A stretch of 64,000 nt of DNA from Pirellulales bacterium (lineage in GTDB: Bacteria; Planctomycetota; Planctomycetia; Pirellulales; PALSA-1355), in NCBI GenBank assembly GCA_963733035.1, contig CAVTBU010000006.1, positions 160,001 through 224,000 on the forward strand. Reading direction: 5' to 3'. Of this stretch, positions 59,104-63,623 are shown piece after piece; within the stretch, counting starts at the first letter, position 1; the number at the start of each line of letters is the position of its first letter. Under the pieces are notes generated by a model. It saw nothing but the letters and a program-made list of their open reading frames with translations, made no database searches and had not been told where the DNA came from. The position numbers and the translations under genes are program-made.

Positions 59104-59820
59104 CTAGCCGTCGCCGTCGGCCACGAAACGATAGCCGGTGCCTCGGACGCTGAGAAAGTGGCGGGGATTGGCGGGGTCTTCCTCAAAGTATTTCCGCAGG
59201 TTGACGATGAAGTTGTCGACCGTGCGCGTGGTCGGCATGTGCGACAAGCCCCATACGTGTTCGAGTAGCTCCGCGCGGGTGACGACCGAGCCTTCGTTCT
59301 CGACGAAGTACCGCAGCAGTTTCATTTCCGTGTGCGTAAGCCGAACGGGTTCGTCGCCTACCATAACTTGGAAGGTGTCGAAATTGACTTGGGCGCGGCC
59401 GAAATTGTAAACCGGGTCGATCTCCCTGGGCTTGGCTGCCGGCAGCGATGCTGGACGCCGGGCAAGCAGATTCCGGGTCATGCTCAGCAGCTCTTCCAGC
59501 TCGAACGGCTTTTGCAGGTATTGGTCGGCACCCACGTCATAGCCTCGCACGCGATCCTCGACCAACGTTCGTGCACTGAGTATGAGCACCGGCACGTTGT
59601 TTCCCTTTTGCCGAACGGCCTCGCAGACGGCATAACCACTCATGCCCGGCAGCATCAGGTCGAGAATTACCAGGTCGGCAGGGTGATCGCCGTTTTCGAG
59701 CAGCTTAAGGGCCGAGGGACCGTCGCCGGCTGTGGTGACTTCATATCCCTCGGCTTCCAGGTTGTATTTAATGCCGAAGGCCAAGTGCTCTTCGTCTTCG
59801 ACGACGAGGATGTGTTTCAT
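59104..59820 (-). CDS. OmpR/PhoB-family response regulator
   Basis: VVEDE, LDLMLPG, KPF, winged helix TRTVDNFIVNLRK...VRGTGYRF. Confidence 0.95.
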   Translation of the reverse strand: MKHILVVEDEEHLAFGIKYNLEAEGYEVTTAGDGPSALKLLENGDHPADLVILDLMLPGMSGYAVCEAVRQKGNNVPVLILSARTLVEDRVRGYDVGADQYLQKPFELEELLSMTRNLLARRPASLPAAKPREIDPVYNFGRAQVNFDTFQVMVGDEPVRLTHTEMKLLRYFVENEGSVVTRAELLEHVWGLSHMPTTRTVDNFIVNLRKYFEEDPANPRHFLSVRGTGYRFVADGDG

Positions 59821-59858
59821 CGTTAGGCATCTGGCGAGGGGAACAAAACGCGGCGCGA

Positions 59859-60842
59859 TCACGTGGCGCCGGCATCTATTCTATCGCTTGCCGCCGCTTG
59901 CGAAACGTCGGCTGCGGACGTCAAGGACGACGGCGGTTTGCTACCGGCCGGTCGCCGGGCCGGCAATTCCACCTCGAAGATTGTGCCGCTGCCCTGCGGC
60001 CGCTCGCGTACGGTGATCTTGCCGTGCAGTCGCTTGACCAGCGTGCGGACGATGAACAGTCCCAAGCCGGTTCCCATTTGAGAGCGTTCAAGCTCACTGC
60101 CGAGCCGGACGAAACGGCCGAAGATCTTCCGCCGCAATTTCGCGGGAATGCCACGGCCGTTGTCGGCGATGCGGGTCACGATTCTGTCATCGGCGGCGAA
60201 TTGCGAATCGATTTGTACTTCCGGCGAGGCACCACCGTATTTGACCGCGTTGTCGACCAGGTTGCGAAACAAGATTTCCAGATCGATCGGTCTGGCTCGC
60301 ACGATGGCCTCACTGGCGGCTAGCCGCACGGTTTCGAGCGGCAGGTGATAGCGCAGGCAGACTGTCTCGGCGCAACTGGCCAGCACGGCGGACAGGTCGA
60401 CGTCGATCAGGTCCGTTTCGACTGGTTGCTGGTCGAGTCGCGCGGCGTCGAGCATGTGATTAATGAGCGTGTCGAGTCGTTGCACGTCCTCGAGCATGAA
60501 CCGATAGAAATCTCCCCGCTGCTCGTCGGTGACGGTTCGTCGCGACAACGTCTGAAGGTAGAGCTTGAGTGAGGCGATCGGACTTTTCAGTTCGTGGCTC
60601 ACGCTATCGATGAAGTTGCTCTGGCGCTGCGAGAGACGGATCCCCTTGATCGAGATGAACAGGTACAGCACGACCCCCACCAACACGAGCCCCAGGAAGC
60701 TTGGTCCCAGCACCGCCACCGTCCAAAACAGGCCGGTGTTTTCGATTTCGACCGAGAGAATGACCCAACCCACGATAAGCGCGACGACTAGCGCGCTCAT
60801 GACGATTGCTAGCGTGATGGGCCATCCGTAAGAAGGTCGCAT
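59859..60842 (-). CDS. Intramembrane-sensing-type histidine kinase
   Basis: Two TMs with a very short loop; SHELKSP, NLVDNAVKY, DNGRGI, GTGLGL. Confidence 0.92.
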   Translation of the reverse strand: MRPSYGWPITLAIVMSALVVALIVGWVILSVEIENTGLFWTVAVLGPSFLGLVLVGVVLYLFISIKGIRLSQRQSNFIDSVSHELKSPIASLKLYLQTLSRRTVTDEQRGDFYRFMLEDVQRLDTLINHMLDAARLDQQPVETDLIDVDLSAVLASCAETVCLRYHLPLETVRLAASEAIVRARPIDLEILFRNLVDNAVKYGGASPEVQIDSQFAADDRIVTRIADNGRGIPAKLRRKIFGRFVRLGSELERSQMGTGLGLFIVRTLVKRLHGKITVRERPQGSGTIFEVELPARRPAGSKPPSSLTSAADVSQAAASDRIDAGAT

Positions 60843-60961
60843 GCGAGTGCTCGTGCCTATTTGCAAGCAGGGGAATCGGGGATATGCCACGCACGGGCGA
60901 CAACATTGGGCAGCGTTGCCTGCGCACCAATGTACCACAATCGCCGACAGGTTTTTGCCAC

Positions 60962-60978
60962 TTGGCATGCCGGCTGCA
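60962..60978 (+). promoter_or_regulatory. Putative sigma54 (-24/-12) promoter
   Basis: TTGGCATG-CCGG-CTGCA, with GG and GC separated by exactly 10 nt. Confidence 0.5.
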
Positions 60979-61089
60979 CTAGGGCAGATGCCGCCCATAC
61001 CGGGGCGGGCGAATTCTTTTGTCTGCTAGCAAATCGATTCGCCGCCGCACGCAAGACTTACGCGTGTAGCCGGTGGGCCTGACCGGGGC

Positions 61090-61438
61090 CGCGGCAGGAA
61101 ACTGCGATTGTAAGATTTGGAACCTCGGGACAAGATGTTGCACAGCCTTGGCCATGGAACGGCCGGGCCCTGACGTTGTGTCCCGCCGTCGCGTCGCTTC
61201 TAGCGGCATTGGCAGGAGGCCGAATGCCGATCGCGAACGCGACCCCATCGCCGCGCTGTTCAACACGGAGGTTGCTCAAGCGATCCTTTTTCAGGCGCTC
61301 GTCGATTCTACGCGCCTGTTGCCCGCCATCGCCGGGTTGGACGCTCCGGGCTGCCGCTGCGCTGATCGCATCGGGCGACACAGAGTACGACTCGCCGACA
61401 GGGATGTTGGCACGATTGAATTTTCCATGGAGGGAAAA
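61090..61438 (+). promoter_or_regulatory. Leader or sRNA with six A(N)GGA-loop hairpins (CsrA/RsmA-type binding sites)
   Basis: Loops CAGGAAA, ATGGAAC, AGGAG, ACGGAG, AGGGAT and ATGGAG, each closed by a stem; the last overlaps the RBS. Confidence 0.6.
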
Positions 61439-62867
61439 ATGGTCTCGGTGCAGATAGCGGCCCTGGTCGCGGCTTTATCGGCCTCGGGTGATACCGTACT
61501 CTTGGATTTTCATGCGGCTTGGTGCGGACCCTGCCAGGCGATGAAAGGAACGATCGACGGACTGGAGCGTGCGGGTTACCCGGTGCGCCGCGTGAACGTC
61601 GATCAAGAGCGCCACCTGGCCCAGCAATACAATGTCCACAACATTCCCTGCTTCGTGCTGTTGGTTGACGGCCAAGAAGCCGGGCGCGTGACCGGCGCAG
61701 TCAGCCAGGCGGAACTCGCCTCGATGTTTGCCCGTGCGGGAGTCGGCCGCAGCGCACAAGTCCAGCCGACGGTTCGCGCTCAATCGCCGGACGCACCACT
61801 TGCTAGGTTTTCACTACCAGGACGCCCCGCCCGCGTGGCGGCACGCGATGCGCGGCTAAATCCGAAACCCCAGCCGATCCCGCCGCGAGGCATTGAAACC
61901 AGCGGCCGGGCGGATGCCGTTTCGCCGCAGGATCTGGTTGAGTCGAGCGTCAGGCTCACCATCAGCGATCCGACCGGCGCGTCCTACGGATCCGGGACCT
62001 TGATCGATGCCCGAGCCGGCGAAGCCTTGGTGCTCACGTGTGGCCATATTTTTCGCGACTCACAAGGGAAAGGACAAGTCACCATCGACCTGCTCGGTCC
62101 GGCGCTCCGCAGAAGCTACCGGGTAGAGTAGTCAGCTACGATCTGAAGACCGATGTTGGCCTGGTAAGTTTCAAGCCGGGCGTGCCGGTGCGCGTGGCGC
62201 CGCTTGCGCCCGGGGCTACACGGCCGCCAAGGGAGACCGCGTGGTCACGGTGGGCTGCAACAACGGTGGTCCGGCCACGGCTGAACAAACGACGGTAACG
62301 GCGATTAACAAGTTTCTCGGCCCGCCAAACCTGCAAGTGGCCGGCCTGCCGGTGCAGGGGCGAAGCGGCGGCGGTCTATTTACGTCCGATGGGCGCGTGA
62401 TCGGCGTGTGCAACGCGGCTGATCCGACCGACAACGAAGGGCTCTACGCGGCGTTGGCGGTCATTCAACAGGAGCTCGATGAAGTGGGCCTCACGGCCAT
62501 CTATCAACAGCCCGCGCCTGCGGCACAGCCGGCCGCGAGTCCAGCGGCGATTGCACCCCAGGTTGCCGTGGCCGCGCTAAATCAATTGCCGGGGCCGGTG
62601 CCGCAGCAAGTTGCCGAACAGGCGCTAGAGGGCCTGGAACCGGCGGCTCTGGCCGAACTGCGCAAAGCCGGCTCGGGCGCCGAAGTGATTTGCATCGTTC
62701 GCCCACTTTCCGACCCACGGGCGAAGAGCGAGGTGATCATGCTCGATCGCGCGTCGCCTGCCTTCTTGCAGCAGTTGGCGGTTGATCGGGAAGCACAACA
62801 ATCACGACATCTCACGTCGCTCAACGTGCCCGCCCAGGCTCGCGAGAGCAAGCAAACGCGTCGTTAG
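61439..62867 (+). CDS. Thioredoxin plus trypsin-like peptidase fusion (frameshifts at ~62100 and ~62210)
   Basis: DFHAAWCGPC; protease motifs LTCGH, TDVGL, QGRSGGG over three frames. Confidence 0.85.
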
Positions 62868-63004
62868 GATTCGCACGGTTCGAGGCAAACTGGAAACATT
62901 ATGGCCACTTCGGCCCCCTGGGGTTGAAGTGGCCTCTATTTTTGGCGACATTTCGGCTGGTATCAAGTATGTTCACCGCGGCGCGCGAGGAGTCGGACCA
63001 CACG

Positions 63005-63623
63005 ATGAAGCTGTATTGCGTGCGCCACGGCGAGACCACCTACAACCTGGACCATCGCATCCAGGGACAATTCGACAGCGAGCTCTCTGAATTGGGGCGC
63101 CGGCAGTGCCAAGCCGTGGCCGAGAGGCTGGGAAGCATGCCCTGCGATTCCGTGATTTCCAGTCCGCTCCGCCGCGCGCGAAAGCGCCCGATACATTGCC
63201 GACAAGCTCGGCATGGAGGTCAAGCTGGAACCGCGACTGATGGAGATCAACGCCGGCATTTTTCAGGGACACAACTGGGCCGAACTCGAAGAGAAGTATC
63301 CCGAGGAGACCGCGCGGTGGCGGAGCCACGACGCTGACTATCGGATTCCCGGCGGAGAGTCACGCCGCGACCTGATGCAGCGGAGCGGTGCAGCCTTTCG
63401 CGCCATTCGCGAGTTGGGTTATGCCAGCGTGATCGTGGTGGCGCACGGCGGGTCGCTGGGCGCGGCTTTCAAAAGCCTGCTTGGAGTGCCACCGGCGCGC
63501 AGCCCGTTTGAACTTGGCAACGGCTCGATCAGCACGGTGCACTGGGAAGCGGAGTTCAAATTGCTGACGCTAAACGAGACGACGCATTTGCATGGGTTGG
63601 ATTCCGGTGGGGGCGATTTGTAG
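63005..63623 (+). CDS. Histidine phosphatase (phosphoglycerate mutase) family protein (frameshift at ~63180)
   Basis: VRHGET, SSPLRRA, L.EI..G, PGGES, VAHGG. Confidence 0.92.

Follow-up and report, generated by a model that had tools for sequence, protein, structure and literature searches.

In Escherichia coli, the CsrA-repressed leaders of pgaA and glgC contain six and four CsrA sites, respectively, while the hag leader of Bacillus subtilis contains two and belongs to a system in which FliW and CsrA engage in partner switching. A CsrA dimer is said to bridge sites that lie 10 to 63 nt apart, a range reportedly given by Mercante and colleagues in 2009. The RNAs CsrB/CsrC and RsmX/Y/Z are sponges, in which GGA-loop hairpins are repeated on one RNA. 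As outlined in sections of PMC4347634, CsrA recognizes GGA in a hairpin loop, and ACA and GGA are invariant in the ligands obtained by SELEX; these sections cite Dubey et al. (2005) for the SELEX ligand RUACARGGAUGU. For RsmE-hcnA, an excerpt of PMC6849547 cites Schubert et al. (2007) and gives the consensus A/UCANGGANGU/A. According to a portion of PMC13443453, CsrA is common in Planctomycetota, with up to 15 copies per genome, and a literature search of limited extent returned no description of any RNA targeted by CsrA in this phylum.

Here, we describe a leader found in the window, which is the whole 64,000-nt stretch of DNA from a Pirellulales bacterium that was analyzed (contig CAVTBU010000006.1, positions 160,001 to 224,000). 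The leader precedes a gene for a fusion of thioredoxin with a trypsin-like protease, and we favor reading it, with moderate confidence, as a CsrA-repressed mRNA leader and a candidate CsrA target.

As in E. coli pgaA and glgC, several GGA motifs occur in the leader, several of them in the loops of hairpins and the last one overlapping the Shine-Dalgarno (SD) sequence; two site pairs (27 and 52 nt) also have a spacing that would suit bridging by one dimer. Unlike pgaA and glgC, this leader comes from another phylum, is much longer (~450 nt), follows a sigma54-type promoter, includes an extra conserved 5' domain, and would face 14 possible CsrA paralogues. The pairing of an upstream site with a site at the SD sequence is shared with B. 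subtilis hag, as is a fliW-csrA pair in the host, although the gene here is not flagellar and 13 of the csrA loci lack a neighboring fliW. With CsrB/CsrC and RsmX/Y/Z, the leader shares the repetition of GGA-loop hairpins on a single RNA. In contrast to those sponges, the leader has no Rfam match, fewer conserved sites, and no conserved terminator, and it is joined to an open reading frame (ORF).

The gene, its predicted leader, and a putative promoter

The leader lies in an intergenic gap of 597 nt (60843-61438) between a divergent kinase/regulator pair and the thioredoxin-protease fusion gene. The pair consists of a histidine kinase (59859..60842, minus strand; Pfam HisKA/HATPase_c) followed by an OmpR-type response regulator (59104-59862; Pfam Response_reg/Trans_reg_C), and it is retained upstream in 15 of 30 loci (loci L011-L037). 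The fusion gene (61439..62867, plus strand) was assigned as a thioredoxin joined to a trypsin-like (Trypsin_2) serine protease by Pfam searches of pieces of the window and of intact orthologues, which are 478 to 501 aa long and contain the domains Thioredoxin and Trypsin_2. Its start codon is at 61439-61441 (MVSVQIAAL...), and the same start is conserved across 30 orthologous loci. The fusion protein is present in 41/41 near relatives and in 116 of the 141 genomes sampled from the order, and the closest protein clusters are mostly from Planctomycetota. When genome contigs were searched with a thioredoxin alignment, the matches were generic thioredoxins, uninformative on the leader.

In the assembly, the fusion ORF (61439-62867) is broken into three frames. 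An otherwise identical contig from a short-read metagenome has an extra G after 62100 and an extra C after 62208, which makes assembly indels, and not gene decay, the probable cause of the breaks. The same metagenome runs also match the leader from 60900 to 61369 without any difference, with a gap in coverage at 61370-61521. Downstream of the fusion gene, a PGAM-like gene is retained in 13/30 loci. In the window, this histidine-phosphatase gene (62924-63623) is split between two frames that overlap (62924..63337 and 63213..63623), probably by another indel.

The predicted 5' leader, of ~450 nt, extends over 60989..61438 on the plus strand and is regarded as noncoding on the basis of frame closure in orthologues and the lack of any Pfam or Rfam family. 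In the source genome, the frame upstream of the conserved ATG stays open for 122 codons, and a Pfam scan of this 122-aa extension gave no match. In 13/30 orthologous loci, the corresponding frame is closed after at most 22 codons, which argues that the gap is noncoding despite the 122 open codons.

A sigma54-type element, TGGCAT-N5-CTGCA (TGGCATGCCGGCTGCA), is located at 60963-60978 on the plus strand, with its GG at 60964-65 and its GC at 60976-77. It satisfies the GG-N10-GC rule and is close to TGGCAC-N5-TTGCA, the genome encodes rpoN, and the position of the element predicts a transcription start near 60988-60990. Both the GGCA and the TGC of the element are invariant in A1, a sequence-only MAFFT alignment of 17 rows. 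Moreover, when orthologous leaders were searched with the strict pattern TGG[CT]A[CT]-N5-NTGC[ATC], 30/86 had a match on the plus (coding) strand versus 3/86 on the minus strand, and 21 of the 30 coding-strand matches sit 438 to 505 nt ahead of the ATG. On this evidence, conservation of the promoter-like element and the ~450-nt leader extends across the family and into parts of the order. Both a sigma54-like promoter and a leader of this length had been proposed in the original prediction.

Many sigma54 promoters, some of them at csrA genes, are predicted in Planctomycetia by PMC12316311. The regulator adjacent to the leader is of the OmpR type and is not an AAA+ activator. A sigma70 scan yielded no promoter; TTGTAA-17-CAAGAT, which lies within a conserved AU-rich block and was considered as a sigma70 promoter, fails the rule of the scan.

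GGA-loop hairpins in the leader

Six hairpins with GGA in the loop had been drawn in the original prediction. A mechanical search (stem of at least 4 bp, G-U allowed, loop of 4 to 9 nt, GGA inside the loop) recovers all six where they had been placed, together with a seventh, on the plus strand, and finds one on the minus strand. Conservation was scored site by site among 16 family-level relatives. Four of the six hairpins, here termed A, B, C, and D (nos. 3 to 6 in the earlier numbering), are conserved, while hairpins 1 and 2 are kept as GGA sites in only 1/16 and 4/16 relatives, respectively. The coordinates that follow all refer to the plus strand.

Hairpin A (CGGCATTGGC-AGGAG-GCCGAATGCCG; 61204..61229, GGA at 61215) is a candidate CsrA site that recurs in 14/16 relatives. 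Folded alone, it reaches -15.2 kcal/mol (z -3.97) and beats all 200 shuffles. Hairpin B (CAAC-ACGGAG-GTTG; 61261..61274, GGA at 61267) is a second candidate site, for which 14/16 relatives have the GGA and 10/16 the GGA-loop hairpin. Hairpin C (GCCGAC-AGGGAT-GTTGGC; 61394..61411, GGA at 61402), the third candidate, is found in 10/16 relatives; alone, it folds at -10.8 kcal/mol (z -4.19), again beating all 200 shuffles. It overlaps ACAGGGATGT (61398-61407), a sequence that had been quoted as matching the core of the E. coli high-affinity consensus RUACARGGAUGU; the sequence is present as quoted, and the consensus is confirmed by parts of PMC4347634 and PMC6849547. Hairpin D (TTTTCC-ATGGAG-GGAAAA; 61421..61438), which is found in 15/16 relatives, lies just before the ATG and holds the SD sequence GGAGG (61429-61433, its GGA at 61429) 5 nt ahead of the start codon. 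When each is folded alone, hairpins B and D, as well as hairpin 2, form as drawn with unremarkable energies.

The best fold of hairpin 1 (61090..61106, GGA at 61097) is GCAG-GAAA-CUGC with a GAAA tetraloop, so its GGA straddles the stem; this hairpin is probably incidental. At the site of hairpin 2 (61147..61167, GGA at 61156), the stem-loop is retained, but GGA is in the loop in close relatives only. In other genera, this site shows a stem with an A-rich loop, as judged by eye, that is not called by RNAalifold. The seventh hairpin (61332-61349, GGA at 61339) occurs as a GGA-loop hairpin in 4/16 relatives.

As a plain count, such hairpins are close to random expectation. The leader has 10 GGA motifs versus 9.2 expected and 7 GGA-loop hairpins versus 3.5 +/- 1.7 in 2000 shuffles (P 0.049), and among 132,826 windows of 461 nt from the genome, 1.45% reach 7. 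The top genome windows by this loose count fall almost entirely within open frames of >160 aa (34/35 regions), so the loose count gives no lead to sponge RNAs. The whole leader does not fold unusually well either (z -1.34), with a minimum free energy that is significant on neither strand. Hairpin number against shuffled sequence (P about 0.05) and whole-leader folding, both of which had been suggested as ways to check the idea, come out close to chance.

The sequence motif is more discriminating. The CsrA/RsmE core known from the literature, CANGGANG, occurs 0.25 times per kb per strand in the genome, and three sites in the source-genome leader (B, C, and D) match it. Only 14 regions of the 6.6-Mb genome, the leader among them, have three CANGGANG motifs within 300 nt; the other 13 are open frames of 171 to 544 aa in which the stems are mostly ≤3 bp. 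In a test that was chosen after the sequences had been seen, the leader is the only place in the 6.6-Mb genome where 300 nt contain three CANGGANG motifs that are each in a hairpin of at least 4 bp. With stems of at least 5 bp, no genome region has three CANGGANG hairpins, and the leader has two.

Conservation and covariation among relatives

To a broader set of 90 orthologous upstream regions, a start with an SD sequence could be assigned in 87 cases. GGA-loop hairpins with a stem of at least 5 bp occur in these 87 leaders at a mean of 2.31 per 323 nt, versus 0.61 for the reverse complement and 0.77 for shuffles, and three or more are present in 39/87 leaders versus 0/87 on the reverse strand. 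Across the same leaders, the hairpins cluster at about -15, -45, -90, -170, and -230 from the ATG.

Compensatory changes are found in the stems of A, B, C, and D, which is the covariation upstream of orthologues that the original prediction called for. On A1, 81.8% of cells in the four helices pair versus 74.3 +/- 1.1 in shuffles (0/500), and 11 of 21 pairs are altered on both sides, while slid controls reach at most 53% paired. Hairpin C contributes 4/6 pairs altered on both sides on this alignment. For hairpin D, 81 distinct orthologous sequences were anchored on GGAGG, which gave a covariation of 0.236 versus 0.133 in shuffles (0/500). In these sequences, the inner UCC/GGA is nearly invariant and the outer pairs co-vary; TCCAnGGAGGGA is near-universal.

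Models of the other two sites were also searched. R1, the model of hairpin B, matches 27 loci at E<1e-3, of which 21 are its own seeds, and against the whole source genome it finds the leader locus alone at E<0.01. R2, the model of hairpin A, is weak, with 20 matches at E<=0.1 and a best E of 0.0014. In the alignments based on these models (A6 and A7), which are fitted to the models and therefore biased towards them, and whose relatives are not independent, 92.9% of cells are paired for hairpin B, with 5/6 pairs altered on both sides, and 95% for hairpin A, with 3/5 pairs altered on both sides. Of the 90 orthologous loci, only around a third have B (27) and A (at most 19) in their specific forms. 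With the crude alignment of 17 rows, and likewise with the 5' domain, RNAalifold called nothing beyond portions of A and D.

Proposed control by CsrA and the rival readings

In the source genome, PF02599 matches above the cutoff identify 14 csrA loci, so the presence of csrA paralogues on which the prediction depended is established. All 61 genomes sampled from the order (61/61) have csrA, with 2 to 17 matches each. One csrA directly follows the genome's single fliW (C5:1429167-1429909). No csrA adjoins the leader locus, and the nearest is ~67 kb away.

The loops themselves bear on which protein might read them. GGA is kept in the loops of A (20/20), B (34/35), and D (81/81), and CANGGANG is found in 34/35 B matches and 72/81 D sequences. 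In D, the position just ahead of GGA is free to vary, and CCA is retained. In a comparison with the RsmE-hcnA and SELEX consensus, ACANGGANGU is matched by both B (ACACGGAGGU) and C (ACAGGGAUGU), whose flanks close a stem, and D fits CANGGANG at the SD sequence, a likeness of sequence only; hairpin A differs in its loop of five bases, AGGAG, where CA and GGA adjoin directly. Any SD sequence contains GGA, so site D alone cannot tell CsrA from plain ribosome binding. Taken as a pattern, the conservation of the loops is the signature expected of CsrA/RsmE ligands and would go beyond the needs of ribosome binding.

We propose the following mechanism for a CsrA-repressed leader. The mRNA would probably be transcribed from the sigma54-dependent promoter ~450 nt upstream, and at least one of the 14 CsrA paralogues may then bind the loops of A to D in the 3' half of the leader. 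A CsrA dimer bridging C and D, whose GGA motifs are 27 nt apart, would occlude the ribosome-binding site and repress translation, and A and B, 52 nt apart, might act as extra high-affinity entry sites. The original prediction had left a choice between a CsrA-controlled leader and a CsrB-like sponge. The first half of it fits the 14 csrA loci, the four conserved and covarying hairpins, one of which covers the SD sequence, and the three CANGGANG matches; the sponge half has no separate support, as evidenced by the lack of an Rfam match and of a conserved terminator and by the joining of the four conserved sites to an ORF.

The rival that survives best, although we consider it unlikely, is a structured leader that is read by something other than CsrA. 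The reader might be another RNA-binding protein or an sRNA, the GGAGG loops might serve as ribosome standby or enhancer sites, or D might tune the accessibility of the SD sequence. Such a reading draws on the GGAGG that A, B, and D all carry in the source genome, the one in D being the SD sequence itself. Across relatives, however, it is GGA that is conserved and not the anti-SD complement GGAGG, which is kept in 11/20 A loops and 20/35 B loops and in none of the listed C loops, and the conserved flanks (ACA..GU and CCA-N-GGA) exceed what pairing with the anti-SD would involve. An upstream ORF (uORF) beginning after hairpin A was rejected: its ATG is not conserved, which means that A does not serve as the SD sequence of a conserved uORF.

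The 5' half of the leader also speaks for a reader other than CsrA, in that it shows further constraints that are unrelated to CsrA. An AU-rich block of 47 nt (AAACTGCGATTGTAAGAnTTGGAAA..CGGGnCAAGATGTTGCAC; 61097..61143, plus strand) is the most conserved stretch of A1. It is found only in a single family (f1), and in the genome it has a single nhmmer match (E 5e-14), with exact patterns that are unique. An ATG inside the block (61135-61137) is conserved in 15/16 rows, and the short ORF that it opens varies in length and sequence; a uORF from this ATG was set aside, given a conserved ATG and a peptide that is not. The conserved 5' half is left unexplained by the model of a CsrA-repressed leader.

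More doubtful still is a sponge or dual-function leader, in which an abundant sigma54-induced leader, or a processed or prematurely terminated fragment of it, would draw CsrA off other mRNAs in the manner of CsrB and RsmY/Z, besides or instead of being regulated. The source-genome leader has seven GGA-loop hairpins and the genome's sole cluster of three consensus hairpins, and with 14 CsrA paralogues and a single FliW, other antagonists are to be expected. Also, a terminator-like stem at 61270-61285, followed by the U-run CTTTTTC, could free a fragment of ~300 nt. The count of such stems is within shuffle expectation (1 versus 0.8), and because some bases of the stem also belong to the 3' arm of hairpin B, the two folds are mutually exclusive. 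Against a sponge, just four sites are conserved, the U-run is missing from the relatives in A1, and the last site is the SD sequence of a conserved ORF, as it would be in a target. Moreover, an Rfam scan of 60000-62500 at E<=10 found no Csr/Rsm sRNA family and no other family. A segment at 61150-61169, considered as a Glutamine-II riboswitch, matches that model only partially, over 20 nt from the 3' part (12.9 bits versus a gathering score of 33; E 6.1) and was taken as chance. We therefore hold a sponge to be less likely than a CsrA-repressed leader.

That the hairpins are chance products of a GC-rich intergenic region and have no regulatory role is highly improbable, since the near-random loose count and the poor conservation of hairpins 1 and 2 are set against order-wide conservation, strand bias, and covariation.

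If the leader is a CsrA-repressed target, the mechanism itself would be textbook, and the value of the locus therefore lies in opening an unstudied system and not in a new principle. Few phyla are as rich in CsrA as Planctomycetota, and the leader provides a concrete, testable RNA from soil planctomycetes. It is conserved order-wide, backed by covariation, and unique in the genome, which makes it suited to testing which paralogues bind what, and it allows sigma54 transcription to be studied in combination with translational control by CsrA. A bolder version, to which we assign only a small chance, is that the leader, besides being a target of CsrA, serves as the chief RNA antagonist for some of the many CsrA paralogues of Pirellulales; the induced hairpin cluster would soak up CsrA and couple a sigma54 stress signal to the wider CsrA regulon. 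If true, the phylum would have its first Csr-type titration circuit outside the sRNA and FliW paradigms, and a second input would come from the conserved 5' domain.

GGA is present in the SD region of every csrA gene of the genome, which is not discriminating because any SD sequence would contain it. Two csrA paralogues, C6:290873(-) and C5:2653814(-), have SD regions (CCACGGAGGGAA and TTACGGAGGGAA, respectively) that are much like hairpin D, and these may reflect autoregulation. Finally, the second and only other TCCANGGAGGGA in the genome, at C6:1005564(+), is positioned 10 nt ahead of an ATG and could mark a second target.
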